This document shows positions 9,300-30,184 of a stretch of 44,018 nt of DNA, piece after piece (within the stretch, counting starts at the first letter, position 1; each line of letters begins with the position of its first letter). Under the pieces are notes generated by a model, which was not told the origin of the DNA, ran no database searches, and saw only the letters and a program-made list of their open reading frames with translations. The position numbers were made by a program, and so were the translations under genes. The stretch lies in sequence record NC_047806.1; one strand, 5' to 3'. The stretch is from Escherichia phage vB_EcoP_B.

Positions 9300-9581
9300 C
9301 ATGTTAGACTAAATAAGTAGGAATAAGTTATTCATAAAGGCCACTCGTAAGTGACCTTGAGTATAACTCAGTCGTAGTTACCATCACAATCTGGGTCAAT
9401 GCCAGAGAAAGCCCAGAATACTACCATAAATAATATGACTCCAAGAATAATAAAAGATGCCTGCATCAATCGTAACCCTCCTCTTCATCAGGTATATCTA
9501 ATCGCATACTTCCATAGCAAGCAAGCATAAGGAATATAAGAAAGAAGGTGGAGAATAGGCAAACAATATCAAACCTGTCCA

Positions 9582-12128
9582 TCAGTGTGTTTCCTTCCAA
9601 CTTGCACCAATCTTATACTCACCTGCCATCGGACAACGCATCTTCAGGTACTGACCTGCCCAAGTCATTGCATCGGCAATGATATGCCCTGCACGGTGAT
9701 AACGACGCTGGCAATGAAGTACACCAGCATCAGCATCAACACTAACGAGATTTGCAGCAGACCACATACGTCCTTCAGAATCCACATGAACACGTTTCTC
9801 CTCTGCATCGAACACTGCTTTCACAGCAGCCTTCTCTGTTTCGAACCCTTCTAAGGTGAAAGGCAAGTCGTAGTTGAGATACAAGACCTCATCTTCAGGG
9901 ACTTCCATCTGGATTTCATCGTGCACGTTAGCTATACCGCAAGGGTTTCCCATGCTATCTAAGGCCACACCTTCCTTGCGCATCACTGCAAACGCTCTGA
10001 CCAATGCGTATTTCATACACAGAGAACCAGTCATCTGGAGTAGTACGTTAAGCATAGTGTGCTCTTTAAGTTCACCACCAGACATACGGATGCGACCCCA
10101 ATGACCATCAGGTGCTTGTAGGTAGCCAAACTTGTTACCTTGTGCGATAACATTCTCACGAAGACGTGCAAGAGATGGTAGTTCAACCTCAAATCTTGCC
10201 ACAACTTCCTCCATTTCTTCCTCAGTAACACCACATACTGCTGCAAGGTTAGCTATACCAGACCCATATAGGAAGGCATATATAAATGTCTTCGCCATGT
10301 CACGCTTAGGAAGACCAGCCTTCATTTGATTATGGGTGTGAATGTCACCATGCAGTACAATATCTTGATATTCAGGGTCATTCATGAAGTGAGACAGTAC
10401 ACGTAGTTCAAGACCAGCACCATCACAACCAAGGATTAGCTTACCTTTACCGGCTATGAATAAATCACGTAAAGGATACAAACCACGGGCAGGAATATTA
10501 ACCACGTTACGATGACGCATACGGAACGTAGAAGTTCCAATACTAATAGCAATAGCTGGCACACGCCATTCTCCGTCATCCTTGTCTGACGTAGGCCAGC
10601 ATCCGTACCTTTCGTAGTATTGCTGCGCATTGATTCCTAACTCCTTGTTAAATGCTACAGGTACAAGGCCGCGACACTTTCGTATACCAGCTTGCGAAGG
10701 CCACACCCCCTTCTGGTCGAAGGCTTCAACGTCACCACGGTTGAGGATCTGACCACGACGGGATACGAGTATGTACCATGCAGCGATACCCAAGCACCAA
10801 TCAGGGACTGTTTTACCTTCACGTGCGGCTCTCTCTTGCCATAAAGTAAGGGACTTTTCATTTATCTTCCCACTCCAAGGCTTGGGTAATACGCCATGCT
10901 CATCGAGATGCGCTTGCTCGGTATCGTTAAATTCAACACCTTTCCATCCATAATCATAGAGCACTTGCTTAACTGTATCCCTGTTACCCAAGGGAATCTC
11001 TTCGAAAGTAACAGGCGAGTAAGCGCCAATCCACTTGATGCTTGGCGTGTCATTACGGTTTCCTCTAAGGTGAGGAAAGTCTTTCTTGACGCTAGCCGAC
11101 CAATCACCAGACTTAGTAGTGACACTCCATACTGTCTTGCGATCTCCTCGTCTCTCTGCGTGAAGAAAGTGAGAGGGGTCAAGGACAGTAGGTATATTGT
11201 TGCTAGCTCCATACTCATTTGCGCGTTGGCATACTTCATTCTTTTCTTCCGGTTTAAAAGGTTTAGACTTGATACGCATAGGCATGTGCGGACGGAACGC
11301 TGCGACTGTCTCATCAATCTTAGCGTCCAATTCCTCGCATCGTGCTAATGCTTTATCTATATCCAGACGGAATCCACGCTCGGCCTGACGGCTCATCTCC
11401 AGCGCCACAATGGACTCCATGTGGAAGGCTGTCTCAATACCTAGGCCAGTGCGTTTATTCACGCCACGGCGTTTGTGCTCCGTCCATTCTCCGTTAAATA
11501 GCCAGAGGAATAGGTCACGGCCTATCGCCACGTCCTCGCGTACACGATGTACCATGTGGTCAGTTAGTTTAGACCAATCCTCGTTCTCCGGCTTATAACG
11601 GCCTATACGAATGCCGTGCGCCTCAATTGAGTGAGGGGCTACGTTACCCATGCCTTTGGCGTATGCTTGCGGAGGGAGGCGTCTATCGGGGTTTAACAGG
11701 CGACTCATGACCAGCGTATCCATGACGCGTACCGGACACAGGTCAGCGCGGAGTCTGCCCTTGCCGCGTCTCTCGGTATAGTTAAAGCCTTTCCAGATAT
11801 CAGGGAATGCTTTCTCAAATAGAAGGCCGTCGTACCCTAGGAAGTTCTGTGAGACGATGGCTTCGCAGTGCTTAAGGAAGTTAACACCGTCAACCAATGT
11901 TCCATCTTGATGGCCTTCCCATTCTTTTAGGCGTTCTCTTGCTTCAGGGTCACGCATCTCGTATGGGTCAAAGAAGAGGAACTCCTCTGTAGTAAGCAAA
12001 TCCATGCAGCAAATGATGTGCACATCTTCGCGGTGGCCATATCGGATAGCATCCAGCAGGCCTTTAGCCTCAGAATCCATCACTAAGATGCGGCCTTCTG
12101 CTTCCTTCTTCCAATCAATTGATTTCAT
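9582..12128 (-). CDS. DNA polymerase (family A, T7 gp5-like), 848 aa
   Basis: ORF track 9582..12161 trimmed to ATG 12126-12128 with GGAG SD; motifs GCDGAGLELRVLSHF, KTFIYAFLYGSG, VHDEIQMEV match T7 DNA polymerase motifs A/B/C. Confidence 0.85.
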   Translation of the reverse strand: MKSIDWKKEAEGRILVMDSEAKGLLDAIRYGHREDVHIICCMDLLTTEEFLFFDPYEMRDPEARERLKEWEGHQDGTLVDGVNFLKHCEAIVSQNFLGYDGLLFEKAFPDIWKGFNYTERRGKGRLRADLCPVRVMDTLVMSRLLNPDRRLPPQAYAKGMGNVAPHSIEAHGIRIGRYKPENEDWSKLTDHMVHRVREDVAIGRDLFLWLFNGEWTEHKRRGVNKRTGLGIETAFHMESIVALEMSRQAERGFRLDIDKALARCEELDAKIDETVAAFRPHMPMRIKSKPFKPEEKNEVCQRANEYGASNNIPTVLDPSHFLHAERRGDRKTVWSVTTKSGDWSASVKKDFPHLRGNRNDTPSIKWIGAYSPVTFEEIPLGNRDTVKQVLYDYGWKGVEFNDTEQAHLDEHGVLPKPWSGKINEKSLTLWQERAAREGKTVPDWCLGIAAWYILVSRRGQILNRGDVEAFDQKGVWPSQAGIRKCRGLVPVAFNKELGINAQQYYERYGCWPTSDKDDGEWRVPAIAISIGTSTFRMRHRNVVNIPARGLYPLRDLFIAGKGKLILGCDGAGLELRVLSHFMNDPEYQDIVLHGDIHTHNQMKAGLPKRDMAKTFIYAFLYGSGIANLAAVCGVTEEEMEEVVARFEVELPSLARLRENVIAQGNKFGYLQAPDGHWGRIRMSGGELKEHTMLNVLLQMTGSLCMKYALVRAFAVMRKEGVALDSMGNPCGIANVHDEIQMEVPEDEVLYLNYDLPFTLEGFETEKAAVKAVFDAEEKRVHVDSEGRMWSAANLVSVDADAGVLHCQRRYHRAGHIIADAMTWAGQYLKMRCPMAGEYKIGASWKETH

Positions 12129-21850: not shown

Positions 21851-21915
21851 CACTAAGTTTCACTAAGATAGACTATTTATGTGATACATGTCACAACTAC
21901 TAAGACAAACCTAGG

Positions 21916-22085
21916 TTGTCTAACGTGTGAGACTAAGGAAAAAAAAAAAAAAAAAAAAGCAATAGATACAGAGCTAGGATAGGCTAGATTGGCTAGGTAT
22001 TCCAAACGTGAAGGGGAGAAAAAGGAAAAAAAAAAAAAAAAAAAAGCAATAGATACAGAGCTAGGATAGGCTAGATTGGCTAGGT
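21916..22085. repeat. tandem direct repeat (two about 87-bp units) each containing an A20 tract; probable genome-terminus / terminal-repeat junction
   Basis: 62-bp exact repeat GG-A20-GCAATAGATACAGAGCTAGGATAGGCTAGATTGGCTAGGT at 21937-21998 and 22024-22085; lies between last late gene and first early gene. Confidence 0.7.
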
Positions 22086-22185
22086 TTCTGGTGTTCCTCC
22101 TACTGCATCTTATCACTATTACCTACTCTCAGCGGTCTACCGACCGCGACCTAATTGCATCTTATAGCTTTAGCTATGCAATCAC

Positions 22186-23196: not shown

Positions 23197-25632
23197 TTAA
23201 CTGGTTTTATTAGTGGCATACATCTCCTCTAACTTGTCTAAACGATAACGAGTATAAGCAGCCTCCAAGATTAAGATTTCACTATATCTAACACCAAACT
23301 GACCTTCTTCGAAGGAGACAATGCCGAAGTCGATTGCATCTAACCCTTCGGATGCAAAAGCAGCTACAATGTCTTGTGCCAATACACCAAAGTGAGTGTG
23401 ATGCACACCACTAGACATCTCTCCAATCAACTTGTACTGCTTGAAGGCAACCTTGCCCCATGCCTTTAGTACACCCTCATCAATACCTTGTGATCCATAC
23501 TTATGAGTGGCATCAGACGTAATAATAGGGTCACTTGTAAGATGGATAGTAGTGAATCTATTACGAGGGCCGCCAGCAGGATACACGTTATCATTGTATG
23601 GCATGATAGCCCCGCTTTGGAACAAGTGCTCATTGGCATTATATACTGCGCGTCTAGAAGTACTAGAACCTGCTCCATGTAAGGTAATTTGCGCACCGGT
23701 ATCTGCTGCTGTACCCTCTCCACCAGAGATGATGACACGTTGGGCAGTTGGGTTATCCGTTGGTATAGTCTTACCAATGAACCCATATTCACCTTCCATC
23801 AGCATCTCTGAGCGAATATTAGCACTTGTACTTGCCTTCAGGGTAAGGTGTTCGACAGTCATATCTGCGGCAACTACCTCTCCTGATAAGTGAAGTGGAG
23901 CAGGAATAGTACGAATACCATCAGTACCCATGAAGGTAGGTATAGCCTGACCCGGAGTTGCACCATATGTAAACTTACGAGATACACGATTGTCATTTGC
24001 AATCTGCATCTTATAGCAGTATATATCAGTGGGGTGTCCATGACCTTTAAATGGGTCTTTATCTTTGTTGTCACCATAAGTCATTGGGTTGAAATGGTTT
24101 TCTCCACCAAAGATATAGTAAATGTAGCTGTCTTTAACTACTACCGAACCTACACCTACACTAGAGTTCACAATGTCACCCTGATAGATTTGGTCTGTGA
24201 TGTTAACCCATTCAATGTCATCTGCATTCCACTTGTTTACATTCAATCGTGCATAGAAGGTACGAGGATAAGATGCCTTGTAACGATCATCGGGTGCACC
24301 TGCTTCCCATTCATTTTCTGCACGTTCTGAACCAAACATAATAAGGTCATCTCCTACTTTAGCAAAAGGTAAGGTAGTATGATGAACATTATGTGGAAAT
24401 CTTAGTGACTCCCAAGTTTGACCTATATCTCTACTACGATGCAGAGAGCTTCCTAGTCGATCGCCACGAGTACCACGAGTGATAAGGTACAATACACCGT
24501 CATAGTACTTGATGCATGGCTCTGCCGCATCTGGTTCATACTCAGATGGTATCTGACGACGAACATAATTAGATGGGCTATTGAAAGCATCAGGGAAGTA
24601 GAAAAGCCCAACTTCTCGTGGAGCTACATCACCTTGATGATAGCCCATAACAAAGCCATTGTTATCAATAGTAGCAAAGCTATGCACCTCTGTGACACGA
24701 GTGATTAGACCAAGATCTGTCTTACGCCAAGGAGATTTATGGAAAGAAGTACCCATGTGCCAACTCTTTCCAGCGTTATTCAAATCTGAAGTCTGCTGGT
24801 TAGGTGTAAGAACCGTGAAGTTGTCCTTATCTATTACTGTTGCAACCTTCATATCACCAGATACACCTGTTACCGCAGAGTTAGAGAAGTTAACAAAATC
24901 ACCAACGAAGAGTCCGTGATCAGGTACATGGATTGTTGCATATCTCTGATTTGCAGCCTTAGTGATACCACCAGTAAGATGCAGACTACGAGACATAGGG
25001 CGATCCCACAATGCACAATTGGTTAGTGCGTTCTTGGCTAAAGTACGTGTTTCAATCATGGCAAACAGACGGTTGCGACATACACCCATACTCATACAAT
25101 GATAGTTCACTGTAGGGTAATCTGGATGCAGATCAGTTAACCACTCTGGAGTAGACCATGTTTGACCATCGTCACCAGACTTAACCCATGATACATGCAG
25201 ACGACTAACACCATGACGGTCGCTACCCATGTAAGGTGCATATATCACGTTCTCATATACAAACGCTTTGTCTTGAGGCCAAGCATTGTAATAAGGGTTA
25301 TCCGTGATTTTATAGAGTTCACCATTGATAAAACCTTTACTCACATAGTAAAGAGGTTGACCTGCTAAACGTTCCCATACGAAGCGGGTGTTATAGAATC
25401 GCTCCATATCAGGTAAAGATGATACTTTGTAAGTAGCACCAGCACCGTCAATTCTCTTACCTGAAGCCATCGCTGCATTTACTGCATCTTGGTCGTTTGT
25501 CTTACCATCACCTTTGGCTCCAAAATCTTTAAGCGATACAACCTCGGTGAGCTTGTCATCCAAGTTACGCCAGATTGCACCTGCTATTTTACTCTTGAAT
25601 TTAACTAATGAAGAACCTAGTCTTTGAATCAT
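23197..25632 (-). CDS. tailspike with endosialidase (endo-N-acetylneuraminidase) catalytic domain, 811 aa
   Basis: ORF track; two sialidase Asp-boxes SGDDGQTW and SRDIGQTW; C-terminal chaperone-like segment; AAAGGAGG SD; last structural gene before genome end as in K1E/K1-5-type phages (from memory). Confidence 0.8.
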   Translation of the reverse strand: MIQRLGSSLVKFKSKIAGAIWRNLDDKLTEVVSLKDFGAKGDGKTNDQDAVNAAMASGKRIDGAGATYKVSSLPDMERFYNTRFVWERLAGQPLYYVSKGFINGELYKITDNPYYNAWPQDKAFVYENVIYAPYMGSDRHGVSRLHVSWVKSGDDGQTWSTPEWLTDLHPDYPTVNYHCMSMGVCRNRLFAMIETRTLAKNALTNCALWDRPMSRSLHLTGGITKAANQRYATIHVPDHGLFVGDFVNFSNSAVTGVSGDMKVATVIDKDNFTVLTPNQQTSDLNNAGKSWHMGTSFHKSPWRKTDLGLITRVTEVHSFATIDNNGFVMGYHQGDVAPREVGLFYFPDAFNSPSNYVRRQIPSEYEPDAAEPCIKYYDGVLYLITRGTRGDRLGSSLHRSRDIGQTWESLRFPHNVHHTTLPFAKVGDDLIMFGSERAENEWEAGAPDDRYKASYPRTFYARLNVNKWNADDIEWVNITDQIYQGDIVNSSVGVGSVVVKDSYIYYIFGGENHFNPMTYGDNKDKDPFKGHGHPTDIYCYKMQIANDNRVSRKFTYGATPGQAIPTFMGTDGIRTIPAPLHLSGEVVAADMTVEHLTLKASTSANIRSEMLMEGEYGFIGKTIPTDNPTAQRVIISGGEGTAADTGAQITLHGAGSSTSRRAVYNANEHLFQSGAIMPYNDNVYPAGGPRNRFTTIHLTSDPIITSDATHKYGSQGIDEGVLKAWGKVAFKQYKLIGEMSSGVHHTHFGVLAQDIVAAFASEGLDAIDFGIVSFEEGQFGVRYSEILILEAAYTRYRLDKLEEMYATNKTS

Positions 25633-26035: not shown

Positions 26036-26116
26036 ATACTCTCCTATTACTTCCCAACCCTCCCTATGAAGATTGGCTAGTAATAGGCCGCTCAAAAGAA
26101 CGGCACTATCTTATCT

Positions 26117-26137
26117 CTTCTATAGTGTCCAGTAAAT
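26117..26137 (-). promoter_or_regulatory. phage RNAP promoter (upstream of tailspike operon)
   Basis: ATTTACTGGACACTATAGAAG. Confidence 0.7.
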
Positions 26138-26166
26138 CGTAAGACACTGATACATAAAACTATGTA

Positions 26167-26364
26167 TTAATTATACCCGCGTTCTAGCGAGAGAATGTAC
26201 ATACCTAATTTTGTAGCGTCAGGCTTACTGAAGCAGACTTTATCGTCCACCTCGTAGACTGCCGTAAGCGTCGGCTTCAGAGGCTTCACCTTTGGATTCT
26301 CTGGTAACGCCGTCTGACACCCTGAAGTGATCAGCGAACCAATCAGCAGGATTGTCGCTAGCAT
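26167..26364 (-). CDS. outer-membrane lipoprotein, o-spanin (Rz1-like), 65 aa
   Basis: ORF track 26167..26427 trimmed to ATG 26362-26364 with GTGAGG SD; signal peptide plus lipobox LITSGC, Pro-rich mature part. Confidence 0.55.
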   Translation of the reverse strand: MLATILLIGSLITSGCQTALPENPKVKPLKPTLTAVYEVDDKVCFSKPDATKLGMYILSLERGYN

Positions 26365-26711
26365 GATTCGCCTCACTTTGTGCCTCCTTCTCTTCCTTCT
26401 TCTTCTTAGCGGCAAGCAGCAGGCCAATAAGACCTGCTACCACCTCTAGCACCTTATTCACAGGTGATTACTTGGCATACCACGTCAGTGACGGAACCTT
26501 CAGTACCTTCACCTAGGTCTACGCCAAGACCTACAGAAACAAGAGCAATCACCAGTGCAACCAGTGCACCTACCACTTTCTTAGACTTAAACAGCTTTTT
26601 CATTACATCTCCCTTTCCATTGAGCTAATAAGTCCGAGTAGTTCTTCCAGTCATCATAGTTGCCACCCTCGGCAGCTTGAGCAACCATGCGCTCGCACCA
26701 TTCAATACATC

Positions 26712-27056
26712 TTACCATCGTGCACATCCCTCTCTTACATCAATGTGGGTGAAATTAGGATAAGACCCAATGCCATATTTATTGGGGTAGCGTGCTGTTA
26801 GATAGGACCATACACGGTAAGGTGTAATACCTTGTACCTTAATGTCAGCAGCCTTACCAGTAAGATGCATGGAGTTCTTAGCACCTCCCACATTAGCATT
26901 GTGCTTAGCACAGCGGTGTCCAGAAGTAATAACTACAGGAGCACCAAAGTGCTCACGTACATCTGTGACTACCTGTAGTAACTCAGCATCTACTGTGGAT
27001 GTACCGCACCCACAACGGCAAGCGAACTCACGGCGCTTGAAGTGTTTGTTAAGCAT
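26712..27056 (-). CDS. endolysin, peptidase M15-type (115 aa)
   Basis: ORF track 26712..27125 trimmed to ATG 27054-27056 with GAGG SD; zinc-peptidase signature SMHLTGKAADI (SxHxxGxAxD) and downstream FTHID. Confidence 0.7.
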   Translation of the reverse strand: MLNKHFKRREFACRCGCGTSTVDAELLQVVTDVREHFGAPVVITSGHRCAKHNANVGGAKNSMHLTGKAADIKVQGITPYRVWSYLTARYPNKYGIGSYPNFTHIDVREGCARW

Positions 27057-27076
27057 TATTGACCTCGTCTTTACAA

Positions 27077-27364
27077 TTAAGCCGCAGGTGTTACAGGGTC
27101 CGACTCCATAGTAGTTGCATCCCACTTGTCGGTGGGTTCACTCCCACGTGCAATAGCGATGTACAAGGATTGGTCTGTTTTCTCTACAGCAACCATGGCA
27201 CCTTTCTGTTTACCAGAGAGGTGTTTAATGTTGATAGGATGATCTTTCTTCTTAAGGTCTGCTTCAGCAACAATAGGCAAAGGGATTGCCGTTGCAGTGG
27301 TTTGTACAGTTTTTACTCGAAAAGCCTGACCAGTAACAGTACCTGCGGTTCCATATTTAGACAT
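27077..27364 (-). CDS. small protein, paralog B (95 aa)
   Basis: ORF track; strong SD AAGAGGAG; shares SGKQKGAMV...IAIA...TPA with neighbour. Confidence 0.5.
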   Translation of the reverse strand: MSKYGTAGTVTGQAFRVKTVQTTATAIPLPIVAEADLKKKDHPINIKHLSGKQKGAMVAVEKTDQSLYIAIARGSEPTDKWDATTMESDPVTPAA

Positions 27365-27788: not shown

Positions 27789-27810
27789 CCTTCTATAGTG
27801 TCCGGTAATT
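27789..27810 (-). promoter_or_regulatory. phage RNAP promoter (overlaps terminase stop)
   Basis: AATTACCGGACACTATAGAAGG. Confidence 0.65.
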
Positions 27811-29707
27811 AATAAGTCCTTGAAATCCTTGCAGAAAGTGTATTTCTGCTTGCCGATTTACTCCTGTAATTCTGACCGTATACTCTTTGCTGCATAGCCA
27901 CGGAAGTGTTGGTTACTCTTCGCTCAGTGCCATAATCTCCATAGAGCATTGCCCTACGGAGGTGAGGTGTGTTCATAGCATGGATGTAATCGCGCATCTC
28001 CTGCGCTCTGAGGCGATTAATCCGTGTAACCTCGTCATAGTCTATCTGAGAAGTTAATTGCCGTATAGCGCCATACAGAGCGTCTAAGCGGTCATCGTGT
28101 CGTAGGCTGTTCTTCTCAATCGTGATGTTCGACATTTGATTGAAAAGGCTGTATGACATGCGTAGTTCAAGCGGATAGTGCTGTACCGACTCAAAATCAG
28201 ACTTGACCATCTCTGCGTTGAAGATGAGCCTGTGGGCCGCCATTAGTGGCTCTAGTGTTTCAATGATACGCAACTCTTTCTGTCCGGTGGCGTAATCTTC
28301 CTCCAGAGTCACAGGCCACTCTCGTTCAAAGTATGGCTTTATAACGGCCTCAAACGCGCCATGACCAAAGTTCTTTTCAATGAATACCTCTTTAACACCT
28401 GCCTGCTTTGCGGCCTGCACAATGCGATTCAGGGACGATTCGCGGTATCCTCCCGGAACACCAAAGCACTGATACACATAAATGAATGTGCCGTGCAGGA
28501 AGACGATAGACACACCCGTTTCATCCCCGTTCTTACCGCCACCTGCGGGGTCAATATACATAATCTTTCGGGTAACAGCACCCCACTCATAAGGTCGGGC
28601 CACAGGGCGATACATAAAGTCTGTAGGCTTATTGCCATACTTCGGTGCATCGCCAATGATGTTAATAGAGTCGTTGCTCCATGTAGGCATCACAGGGACT
28701 TCCTCTGTACCGAATGAAGTGAAGATGAGGTTGTTCAGGCGTAGTGGATAGCGGTCAGCATCCATCATGCGAGTGTTAAGCATAAACTGAAGCTGGAACT
28801 TAGCCGCACCCTGCGAGATTTCCTTCTCGATCAGCACATCATCATCATACATTTCAGGTGCACAAGGTGCACCACTATTGCCATCCAAGCCATACCCTGA
28901 GCGAAGTGCTGGGTTGTCCTTCATATCCTGCACAATCATAGGTGCAAGGAAGTCACCATAGCATTGCTCCTGCTCCACTGAGGGATAACGTGCAGTCCAG
29001 ATACGAACAGAGTAACCACGAGCAGGTAGGTTATTGTAGATAGAGTTTACGTTCTGAGGAGTACCAAGGTAGATAATATCACCAAACTGGTTAATAGATT
29101 CAAACTCCTTGGTCAGTTCCTCAAGCAAGGCACGTCCTGCCGCTGTACGAGCATTCTGCATTGACTCAACGTCATCTGCTAGGATGATATCTGCACGCGC
29201 ACCCTGCATACCTGCTTCGATTGAGTAACAAGACACAGAAGGCGACTTGTCACTGCCACGTAGGGTGTAATGAATCTCAAATGCCTTAACTGAGGCACGG
29301 TCCCCTGCGTAGATGTCCGGTAGCATAAACTCAAGAAAGTCTAGGCCACGGAAGATTTTAACTACCCAACCTGCGATTTCCTCTGCTCGCTTGGCGTTTT
29401 GGGATACTACCATGATACGCTTATGGGGTTCATGGATGATACGGAAAACAGTATAGATTGCTGATAGTGTAGTTTTAGCGATACCACGGGGCGCTTCGAT
29501 GAGGCGATATTTATGTCCATAGAATAGAAACTTTAAAATATCGGCCTGCATACGAATCAGATGAGGGTTGCCTGCAATCAAGTTATGGATAACTGTATCT
29601 GCAAAGAGAAGCAAACCTTCCGCCGTATACTGAAAAGTCTGCTGTAACTCCTGTAGCATCTCCCATCTGGCAAGAGCCTCCGCTTGTGATTCTCTTGCCT
29701 TAGCCAT
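27809..29707 (-). CDS. terminase large subunit (gp19-like), about 632 aa
   Basis: ORF track 27809..29710 (TTG) trimmed to ATG with CTAAGGAGG SD; Walker A-like PRGIAKTT; size and position. Confidence 0.8.
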   Translation of the reverse strand: MAKARESQAEALARWEMLQELQQTFQYTAEGLLLFADTVIHNLIAGNPHLIRMQADILKFLFYGHKYRLIEAPRGIAKTTLSAIYTVFRIIHEPHKRIMVVSQNAKRAEEIAGWVVKIFRGLDFLEFMLPDIYAGDRASVKAFEIHYTLRGSDKSPSVSCYSIEAGMQGARADIILADDVESMQNARTAAGRALLEELTKEFESINQFGDIIYLGTPQNVNSIYNNLPARGYSVRIWTARYPSVEQEQCYGDFLAPMIVQDMKDNPALRSGYGLDGNSGAPCAPEMYDDDVLIEKEISQGAAKFQLQFMLNTRMMDADRYPLRLNNLIFTSFGTEEVPVMPTWSNDSINIIGDAPKYGNKPTDFMYRPVARPYEWGAVTRKIMYIDPAGGGKNGDETGVSIVFLHGTFIYVYQCFGVPGGYRESSLNRIVQAAKQAGVKEVFIEKNFGHGAFEAVIKPYFEREWPVTLEEDYATGQKELRIIETLEPLMAAHRLIFNAEMVKSDFESVQHYPLELRMSYSLFNQMSNITIEKNSLRHDDRLDALYGAIRQLTSQIDYDEVTRINRLRAQEMRDYIHAMNTPHLRRAMLYGDYGTERRVTNTSVAMQQRVYGQNYRSKSASRNTLSARISRTY

Positions 29708-30006
29708 CAATCCTCCTTAGTGAATTGGATGATCTTGCCACTTGATGCCTCTCGGATAGCCTTGAGGCGCTTAGATAGCTTGGACTCCTCCTGCTGTGCA
29801 GCGGGTGTAGCGGTAATACCATTATCAAGAACCCACTTACACATAGCTCCAATGTCTTTACCAGAGACTAAATGCAGTGCTGCATCTGGGTCTTCTTCTA
29901 TAGTGTCCAGTATTGCCTGTGCTTTCTTATTAAAGATTTTGGTAATAGCACCATGTAGAATGCCAACCTCGTCTTCCGTAGCTGCATGTTTATTGTGTAC
30001 GCTCAT
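29707..30006 (-). CDS. terminase small subunit (gp18-like), about 99 aa
   Basis: ORF track 29707..30051 trimmed to ATG 30004-30006 with GGAGGAGG SD; position between holin and large terminase. Confidence 0.55.
   Translation of the reverse strand: MSVHNKHAATEDEVGILHGAITKIFNKKAQAILDTIEEDPDAALHLVSGKDIGAMCKWVLDNGITATPAAQQEESKLSKRLKAIREASSGKIIQFTKED
29895..29915 (-). promoter_or_regulatory. phage RNAP promoter-like sequence inside small terminase gene
   Basis: CAATACTGGACACTATAGAAG (5' end diverged). Confidence 0.45.
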
Positions 30007-30184
30007 GGCTCCTCCTCCATAGTTTAATCTTGGTATAAAACCAGTCTCCAATTTGCAACACGGTATAAATGAATGTTGCTATTAACACCCAATTATCCCA
30101 ACTGATACCGAGGAAGTACCCACCTGATACTAATGCAGGTGGCGCCAGCTTCACACCACTATCTACCAGTTCGGAGTTAATCAT
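29990..30184 (-). CDS. holin (T7 gp17.5-like class II), 64 aa
   Basis: ORF track; strong SD AAGGAGGTG; hydrophobic core IATFIYTVLQIG parallels T7 holin ...AIAYTVVQIG... (from memory). Confidence 0.6.
   Translation of the reverse strand: MINSELVDSGVKLAPPALVSGGYFLGISWDNWVLIATFIYTVLQIGDWFYTKIKLWRRSHERTQ

Follow-up and report, generated by a model that had tools for sequence, protein, structure and literature searches.

An intact K1E-type lysis cassette in Escherichia phage vB_EcoP_B with a probable spanin-type pair of ORF73 and gp45

The closest described systems to the lysis region at positions 26,167-26,711 of Escherichia phage vB_EcoP_B (NC_047806.1; the whole 44,018-nucleotide (nt) stretch is called the window below) are the cassettes of phages K1E, K1-5 and SP6 (K1E genes 43-45), in which the genes follow the same order and gp44 and gp45 are the same proteins. 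In the spanin survey of Kongari et al. (2018, PMC6139136), the gp44 proteins of these three phages are listed as 'separated' inner spanins (i-spanins) with the remark 'Too small?' (18-21 periplasmic residues), the pairs carry the remark 'Too short', and the lipoproteins of K1-5, K1E, SP6 and UAB_Phi78 are grouped as a family of outer spanins (o-spanins). For UAB_Phi78 the same survey lists an 'overlapped' i-spanin of 69 amino acids (aa), with a 110-nt overlap and the o-spanin in the +1 frame. The 48 periplasmic residues given to this protein in the table imply a predicted transmembrane domain (TMD). RefSeq and PHROGs name gp44 a holin. Comparative analysis of the vB_EcoP_B region, including the 73-aa open reading frame (ORF) ORF73 (26240..26461, minus strand) that is unannotated in K1E, K1-5 and vB_EcoP_C, points to an intact K1E-type cassette in which ORF73 and the lipoprotein gp45 would form a spanin-type pair, gp44 would be an accessory protein like T7 gp19.5, and gp38 would be the holin. 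This combined reading is judged reasonably probable.

The arrangement of ORF73 and gp45 also follows that of the P2 LysB/LysC-type overlapped spanins (the class of Summer 2007 and Kongari 2018), in which the inner gene comes first and the lipoprotein gene begins inside it in the +1 frame, extends past its stop codon and occupies the distal end of the cassette. In comparison with these spanins, however, the ORF73 proteins are very small (58-83 aa), most members are without a canonical N-terminal TMD, there is little predicted coiled coil beyond one helix, the tail is unconstrained, and no i-spanin family is matched. The lambda Rz/Rz1 pair shares the proposed function and the out-of-frame +1 nesting, and gp45 is likewise a small Pro-rich lipoprotein with one extra periplasmic Cys. 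Lambda Rz has a 20-residue TMD (apparent free energy of membrane insertion, dGapp, -2.5) and a coiled-coil periplasmic domain of ~130 aa, whereas ORF73 has neither, and Rz1 is fully embedded in Rz, whereas gp45 merely overlaps ORF73. The Hessa, Kyte-Doolittle and Eisenberg scale values used here are approximate and dGapp is crude; only relative comparisons of dGapp were used, because the accepted membrane proteins T7 gp18.5 (+4.7) and lambda S105 score +4 to +5. In relation to the right end of T7, gp38 is a gp17.5-type holin in the syntenic slot and gp44 is like gp19.5, with a …VVC..(I/L)TC. C-terminus. In contrast to T7, the window has no homolog of gp18.5/18.7, either between the terminase genes or elsewhere, the spanin function appears to be placed after gp44, and the endolysin beside gp44 is an M15 peptidase rather than the gp3.5 amidase.

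The nucleotide identity over positions 26100-27130 (99.6% to vB_EcoP_C, D and R, 99.5% to vB_EcoP_K and 98.9% to K1E) places the window among the K1E-like Vectrevirus phages (Molineuxvirinae). Within this region, ORF73 starts with a GTG in the last codons of gp44, with an 8-nt overlap (GTGAATAA), and its product includes peptides such as EAQSEANHASDNPADWFADHFR. The first-pass annotation of the window had pointed to this frame as the only i-spanin-like one, GTG-initiated and without a Shine-Dalgarno sequence (SD). The frame is present as described, and the comparisons below indicate a real, conserved gene under selection that is the best i-spanin candidate. The protein consists, in order, of an amphipathic Leu-rich N-terminal helix, a KKKK/EE-rich helix, a conserved DNPADWFADHFRV motif and an unconstrained tail. 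Alignment of 26 distinct homologous regions from phages of E. coli, Salmonella, Klebsiella and Proteus showed that the ORF73 frame is open in all 26 and that its GTG start is invariant. The GTG sits in the TGT-GAA/GCA codons of gp44, whose final Cys codon is TGT in 26/26, so that the start codon of ORF73 is preserved. The 77-nt gap between the gp44 stop and the gp45 start (26377-26453), in which ORF73 is the sole ORF, contains no indels at all, and the indels elsewhere are multiples of 3. Nucleotide diversity in the gap is 0.249, 0.086 and 0.383 at ORF73 codon positions 1, 2 and 3, respectively (permutation p=2e-5).

The ratios of nonsynonymous to synonymous diversity (pN/pS) in the three frames change along the region. 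Over the 77-nt gap, pN/pS is 0.39 in the ORF73 frame, compared with 1.25 in the gp45 frame and 3.22 in the gp44 frame. In the first half of the overlap, where the gp45 signal peptide and the ORF73 motif are encoded by the same DNA, the values are 0.37 for ORF73, 0.97 for gp45 and 0.89 for gp44. In the second half, which encodes the mature N-terminus of gp45 and the tail of ORF73, they are 1.17, 0.41 and 1.41 in the same order. The gp45-only part gives 4.89 for ORF73, 0.15 for gp45 and 1.17 for gp44, and the gp44-only part gives 1.34, 2.00 and 0.31. Thus residues ~1-48 of ORF73 are under purifying selection and the last ~25 are not, and these comparisons show that ORF73 is a real protein-coding gene.

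Searches of protein collections agree with this assignment. ORF73 matches phrog_9219, a family annotated as of unknown function, from end to end (E=1.8e-35), and 49 unnamed clusters were found for it in a collection of 5.8 billion proteins, while an exhaustive profile search yielded 65 clusters at 50% identity. At 13 positions the same residue occurs in all genera (A9, L11, L14, L15, Q28, A31, D36, P38, A39, W41, H45, F46 and V48). No meaningful match was found in Pfam, NCBIfam or the PDB. The AlphaFold2 model contains helices at residues 3-33 and 38-45 and a disordered tail, with a mean pLDDT of 61. An untranslated ORF73, with the frame conserved only for the SD and translation-initiation region of gp45 or for RNA structure, would be in keeping with the GTG start that has no SD, with the position of the AGGAGG of gp45 inside ORF73, and with the lack of annotation in K1E, K1-5 and most RefSeq relatives. 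However, the 3-nt periodicity and the low pN/pS span the whole gap, and the ORF73 frame dominates even over the signal peptide of the lipoprotein. Homologs at 27-47% identity are moreover conserved as protein in at least 65 clusters, and those of PP99, JSF38, Reminis, Nufs112 and VL73 are annotated, ATG-started genes abutting the gp44 stop (TAATG or TGATG). An untranslated frame is accordingly considered very improbable.

The lipoprotein gp45 (26167..26376, minus strand; gp45 in K1E) overlaps the second half of ORF73 by 137 nt in the +1 frame. It is 69 aa long from a GTG (MRRIMLATILLIGSLITSG|CQT…) and matches phrog_8971, 'Rz-like spanin', with E=9e-40. The lipoprotein with lipobox LITSG|C and an ORF end at 26167 reported in the first-pass annotation is thus present, and its o-spanin label agrees with the PHROG match and with the o-spanin assignment of Kongari 2018. 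An alternative ATG start lies at 26364. The GTG at 26376 is most likely the start, as judged from its position 6 nt downstream of the AGGAGG, the basic n-region that it provides (MRRIMLAT…) and its agreement with K1E gp45; the corresponding codon is ATG in K1-5 and SP6. The signal peptide consists of a basic n-region, a hydrophobic core and the lipobox ITSGC, followed by Gln at +2 (no Asp, as for outer-membrane sorting). The mature part has 50 aa with 6 Pro and a conserved C-terminus, KPDATKLGMYILSLERGYN, and the part of the gene outside the overlap has the low pN/pS of 0.15 given above. The UniRef name is 'O-spanin', and the exact protein is found on a contig of the vB_EcoP_B/K group. The gp45 family has 161 phage records, compared with 95 for gp44 and 102 for ORF73. 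These features support gp45 as an o-spanin with a predicted role in outer-membrane disruption.

The association of ORF73 with gp45 extends to distant relatives. At every fetched locus, in four types of cassette, the ORF73-family gene has a gp45-family lipoprotein alongside, and of 38 distinct pairs 37 are overlapped, the lipoprotein being read in the +1 frame; four of the lipoproteins were identified by hand (LEHGYN and LESGYN variants, IQGC lipobox). In one type of cassette, ORF X (described below), a 49-aa gp44-like protein, a ~70-aa ORF73-like protein and an overlapped lipoprotein follow each other in this order, with a lytic transglycosylase as the endolysin. This type was found in Pectobacterium phage PP99, Vibrio phage JSF38, Ralstonia phage Reminis, Edwardsiella phage WAG25P1, Aeromonas phage Aer_P220, Pantoea phage Nufs112 and Erwinia phage VL73. 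In most of these cassettes the start codon of ORF73 is an ATG within a TAATG, TGATG or ATGA junction, and in several it is an annotated gene; the authors of Nufs112 annotated the pair as Rz-like (the ORF73 homolog) and Rz1-like. In Vibrio phages phi 2 and PVP-XSN and on an environmental contig (L065), the endolysin is an amidase and the place of gp44 is taken by an unrelated membrane protein of 76-79 aa (phrog_9685). A gene of the ORF73 family (phrog_9219, E=8e-23) is nevertheless retained there, together with a lipoprotein of the gp45 family (…YILDLERGYK). A four-gene cassette on contigs L066-L069 is composed of a GH108-like endolysin, a holin with two TMDs, an ORF73-like gene and the overlapped lipoprotein.

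The ORF73/gp45 pair thus outlasts swaps of the endolysin (M15, transglycosylase, amidase and GH108-like) as well as replacement of gp44 by an unrelated 76-80-aa membrane protein or a two-TMD holin. It is because of this co-occurrence and overlap despite the swaps that ORF73 is read as an i-spanin-like partner. In its gene arrangement ORF73 is as expected for an i-spanin, overlapping an o-spanin gene that lies in the +1 frame, and it accompanies the o-spanin without exception across the fetched loci. The domain is highly charged, and the ~52+50 residues of ORF73 and gp45 are towards the bottom of the range covered by Kongari 2018; the AlphaFold2 model is of low confidence. From architecture and co-occurrence, ORF73 is probably the i-spanin-like inner partner of gp45. 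As for the earlier suspicion that the spanin complement is incomplete or atypical, the pair is atypically small, as Kongari et al. likewise flagged, but it is not incomplete.

Several observations weigh against this assignment, and most concern membrane insertion. ORF73 has no similarity to described i-spanin families, with no Rz-like PHROG, Pfam, NCBIfam or PDB match and phrog_9219 as its only hit. Among 53 members of the ORF73 family, none has an uncharged run of at least 17 residues (median 9), and the median number of charged residues at positions 2-19 is 3 (n=53). The hydrophobic moment of the family is 0.42, whereas the TMDs of lambda Rz, T7 gp18.5 and gp44 have values of 0.04-0.14, and the crude dGapp of the family ranges from +1.7 to +18. 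The corresponding helices of the Proteus and PP99 proteins are clearly amphipathic (LLRILAGLIDLLKSY; ALLEVLAILLRAIERK). A Lys/Arg (K/R) cluster lies just C-terminal of the helix, so that the positive-inside rule would put the conserved domain in the cytoplasm. The C-terminal ~25 residues are unconstrained and disordered, whereas lambda Rz contacts Rz1 via its C-terminus. A type II N-terminal TMD is therefore doubtful for the family as judged from its members. The ORF73 of the window has an apolar stretch of 12-15 residues, VLEVVAGLIGLLLAA (dG15 +0.2 and dG19 +7.6 on the crude scale), which could still insert in the membrane. A search of the literature on gp44, gp45 and ORF73 of K1E, K1-5 and SP6 found no experimental work.

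Genetic linkage also leaves room for another partner. ORF73 is equally coupled to the upstream membrane protein, and thus linkage alone cannot separate a spanin partner from a holin partner. In such a case, ORF73 would not be a spanin and would instead work in the cytoplasm or at the membrane periphery with the membrane protein encoded upstream, held at the membrane by its amphipathic helix and acting as an antiholin-like protein, a holin cofactor or a regulator of lysis timing. The coupling occurs with upstream membrane proteins of any family (through the same overlap as in the window or TAATG, TGATG or ATGA junctions), and the amphipathic helix, the K/R cluster on its C-terminal side and the lack of a signal peptide or a solid TMD would suit a protein of this kind. 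In phi 2 and PVP-XSN, ORF73 stands beside the membrane protein, and a lipoprotein lies 550-780 nt off, past a gene on the reverse strand. However, ORF73 co-occurs with gp45 in 100% of cases and overlaps it out of frame (+1), as is the hallmark of the Rz/Rz1 arrangement, the motif of ORF73 stays conserved when the upstream partner switches family, and the gp45-family o-spanin of L066-L069 would be left without an inner partner. A holin partner is fairly unlikely on this balance.

The lack of a solid TMD could also be accommodated with ORF73 as the spanin partner. The family may consist of TMD-less inner partners that enter the periplasm only through the holin lesion, like a soluble endolysin, and that bind the gp45-type lipoprotein via DP.DWF..HF while the amphipathic helix attacks or bridges the membranes. 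We regard this version as speculative and rather unlikely. If it were true, spanin action would be directly dependent on holin triggering, the definition of an i-spanin would be widened to amphipathic proteins without a TMD, and the SP6/K1E-like spanins marked 'too small', possibly together with those of the VP4/ICP3 vibriophages, would be mis-assigned in the reference catalogue.

The protein upstream of ORF73, gp44, is encoded at 26454..26603 on the minus strand and corresponds to the 49-aa ORF annotated as gp44 in K1E and in the K1-5 and SP6 counterparts (phrog_4712, E=3e-27). Its ATG at 26603-26601 is preceded by the SD GGAAAGGGAG and followed by AAAAAG. The ATG with its strong SD and the run of five A residues (A5) named in the first-pass annotation both exist, at 26601-26603 and 26596-26600, respectively. 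That annotation had further claimed that the ATG opens only a 31-codon Cys-rich frame, that the TM helix lies in a +1 frame without ATG, and that the membrane-protein frame is interrupted at the A5 run, perhaps through a homopolymer sequencing error, an authentic pseudogene or non-standard decoding. Direct translation showed instead 49 uninterrupted codons, MKKLFKSKKVVGALVALVIALVSVGLGVDLGEGTEGSVTDVVCQVITCE, beginning with MKKLFKSKKVVGALVALV, ending with VVCQVITCE and stopping at 26454-26456, with the helix in frame 0 of the ATG at 26603. The peptide reported earlier, MKKLFKSKESGRCTGCTGDCSCFC, is exactly regenerated when the reading repeats a single base after codon 8 (…TCT AAG | G AA AGT…), a -1 slip at AAG|AAA. 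The slip occurs after codon 8 and not at the A5 run, and the fault lies in the manual translation rather than in the DNA.

A frameshift, a sequencing error or recoding at the A5 run is excluded by the direct translation and the regenerated slip, and a test for a frameshifted gene, a pseudogene or programmed recoding found no interruption in the 49 codons downstream of the gp44 start. The exact 49-aa protein is recorded from 66 contigs, and the pN/pS in its own frame is 0.31 in the gp44-only region. The start region and the frame structure are common to the relatives, a result that the first-pass annotation had itself named as speaking against its reading. The A5 run exists, and nothing further favours a broken gene, the chance of which is practically nil. 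Nothing is broken here, and gp44 is an intact gene of an ordinary right-end K1E-like lysis cassette.

The layout of gp44 comprises a basic N-terminus (+5), a 19-residue TMD, an acidic tail and a terminal C-x4-C. The TMD consists of 19 apolar residues with a dGapp of -1.6 and flanks of +5 on the N-terminal side and -5 on the C-terminal side, as in an N-in/C-out protein, and a 19-residue apolar TMD is found in every lineage of the gp44 family (crude dGapp -0.6 to -2.1). T7 gp19.5 (MFRLLLNLLRHRVTYRFLVVLCAALGYASLTGDLSSLESVVCSILTCSD) is similar in that both proteins have 49 aa, are encoded after the large terminase (TerL), and have one TMD and a C-x4-C end. Their similarity was detected by BLASTP (E=7e-4) and as a co-linear PHROG cross-hit (E=0.032), and gp44 is the best match of gp19.5 in the whole window, as a reciprocal best hit (E=0.018). 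A profile comparison with hhalign gave E=2.4e-4 but a probability of only 43%. The PHROG families differ (phrog_4712 for gp44 and phrog_2193 for gp19.5), and Pfam DUF5465 (PF17553) matches gp19.5 (E=6.5e-11) and not gp44. These last results count against the relationship, and the homology is consistent but modest, with moderate support from the comparisons.

The substitutions A24D and E38G in T7 gp19.5 arise upon holin deletion or endolysin disruption, and a role as a secondary holin has been suggested for this protein (PMC2680503, PMC8365609). T7 encodes a separate, complete spanin pair, gp18.5/18.7, and thus gp44, if it is a homolog of gp19.5, is unlikely to be an i-spanin. From these comparisons we infer that gp44 would be the counterpart of gp19.5, an accessory holin-like protein of lysis timing and neither the i-spanin nor the main holin. 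This would also tie gp44 to the question of what gp19.5 does in T7 lysis.

The published alternative is that gp44 is itself a very short 'separated' i-spanin, a TMD with a periplasmic tail of ~21 residues and two Cys, that pairs with gp45 and leaves another role to ORF73. The robust N-in/C-out TMD is what such a protein would need, and the conserved periplasmic C-x4-C could be matched by the conserved periplasmic Cys of gp45, disulfides being important in the lambda spanins. Kongari 2018 gives the pair as SIS/SOS, and in the SP6 record AY288927.2 the homolog of gp44 bears the label 'i-spanin'. However, the same survey flagged the protein and the pair for their size (21+50 periplasmic residues), and a reach of 21 residues falls short for an i-spanin. 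Its UAB_Phi78 i-spanin is a different, 69-aa overlapped protein with ORF73-like geometry, which is equated here with an ORF73 homolog by length, overlap and frame and not by a sequence match. In phi 2, PVP-XSN and L065-L069, gp45-family lipoproteins occur without a gp44-type protein and always with ORF73, so that gp44 does not keep company with the o-spanin as an i-spanin should. The likely T7 homolog also coexists with the complete gp18.5/18.7 pair. An i-spanin role of gp44 is therefore held to be quite unlikely.

The holin gene of the window lies outside the cassette. The product of gene 38 (29990..30184, minus strand; 64 aa) is a T7-family (gp17.5-type) holin that matches PF10746 with E=5.5e-27 (93.7 bits vs. 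a cutoff of 25.4) and T7 gp17.5 in a tblastn search with E=1.5e-6. It corresponds to K1E gene 38, annotated 'holin', and occupies the T7-syntenic slot in the order tail fiber, holin, small terminase (TerS), TerL. By these matches gp38 is identified as the canonical holin of this lysis system. The candidacy of gp44 as the sole holin was weakened once gp38 had been found.

With gp38 as the holin, gp43 as the endolysin, gp44 as the gp19.5-like accessory and ORF73/gp45 as the spanin pair, the comparative evidence yields a consistent assignment, and this is the best-supported one. Existing records disagree with it in several places. In SP6 AY288927.2 (L027), gene 48 in the region of 1829-2026 and 1842-2102 is labelled 'o-spanin', yet it translates to the ORF73 homolog (VAGLLGLLLAYKKK…DDPADWFADHFRV…), and the true lipoprotein frame (MKQIWLAMTLLIGSLTISGC…) is unannotated. 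The VP4/ICP3/VP3 vibriophage group of Kongari 2018 has a 47-aa 'separated i-spanin' with ~21 periplasmic residues. This may, by analogy, be the same mis-assignment of a gp44-like protein, with a hidden ORF73-like gene. The cassette is near-identical to those of published K1E-like phages, and the value of the assignment is one of curation. Knowledge of the small lysis ORFs is practically useful because phages of the K1E/K1-5/SP6 type serve as chassis for therapy and engineering.

In the mechanism proposed for the cassette, transcription would proceed on the minus strand from the phage promoter at 27806 through five tightly overlapped and probably translationally coupled genes, gp43, ORF X, gp44, ORF73 and gp45. 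ORF73 would be made by termination-reinitiation coupling to gp44, since its start has no SD. ORF73 and gp45 would then form a spanin-type pair for outer-membrane disruption with the overlapped Rz/Rz1 architecture, in which the conserved DP.DWF..HF motif would mediate the action of the inner partner, while gp44 would have an accessory role in lysis timing beside gp38 as the main holin and gp43 as the M15 endolysin.

The phage RNA polymerase promoter that would serve this unit (ACCGGACACTATAGAAG; 27790..27806, minus strand) matches the K1E/SP6-type core and lies upstream of genes 41-45. The next one (ACTGGACACTATAGAAG; 26117..26133, minus strand) is an exact core match and marks the downstream edge of the transcription unit. 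Between the two lie gp41, gp42, gp43, ORF X, gp44, ORF73 and gp45. The K1E/SP6-type core (0-2 mismatches) occurs at 8 minus-strand sites in the window (7364, 8510, 9279, 13706, 26117, 27790, 29895 and 42651), compared with 0 expected by chance. The copy at 29895-29911 falls inside the coding sequence of the small terminase, a short way downstream of the gene for the holin. A scan of the cassette for sigma-70 promoters and terminators gave sites no commoner than chance.

The endolysin gp43 (26712..27056, minus strand; 114 aa) contains a Peptidase_M15_3 domain (PF08291, E=5.5e-33) and matches phrog_894, 'endolysin'. It is without a signal or signal-arrest-release (SAR) sequence and is annotated as endolysin in NC_007637 and NC_047807. 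The M15 endolysin is a mobile module, and its distant relatives L023-L026 therefore lie in unrelated contexts; these loci were left out as comparators. Overlaps of 7, 17, 8 and 137 nt join, in cassette order, the endolysin to ORF X, ORF X to gp44, gp44 to ORF73 and ORF73 to gp45. ORF X (26587..26718, minus strand) encodes a soluble protein of 43 aa (MVRCIEWCERMV…; phrog_1312, E=6.7e-18), which is annotated as hypothetical in vB_EcoP_C and SP6 (gene 55) and has homologs in Proteus, Klebsiella, Aeromonas, Ralstonia and Pantoea phages. It carries a C-x-x-W-C motif, and the ORF is conserved in phages ranging from those of E. coli to those of Ralstonia and Pantoea despite the changes in endolysin type. 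ORF X may be an unrecognised component of the lysis cassette.

Some features outside the cassette were also observed. The large terminase gene (27809-29710, minus strand) is a single uninterrupted ORF of 633 aa, whereas those of K1E and vB_EcoP_C are split into 40A and 40B by the homing-endonuclease gene 40.5. The window resembles a whole genome whose sequence, compared with that of K1E, is reverse-complemented and circularly permuted. The gene for the tail spike is at 23197-25632 here and near the right end in K1E, and the early genes lie below ~22 kb. A spurious ORF at 21877-22116 (minus strand) has a duplicated segment, …LANLAYPSSVSIAFFFFFF…, which indicates a direct DNA repeat with a tract rich in T/A homopolymers, possibly a genome-end or terminal-repeat region. 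Directly following the gene for the DNA polymerase, two adjoining ORFs at 9368-9469 and 9466-9600 (minus strand) encode tiny membrane proteins (33 and 44 aa) that both have a single strong TMD and end in an acidic …D..YD sequence. Their position matches the gp13.5/gp14 region of K1E, which encodes hypothetical proteins.

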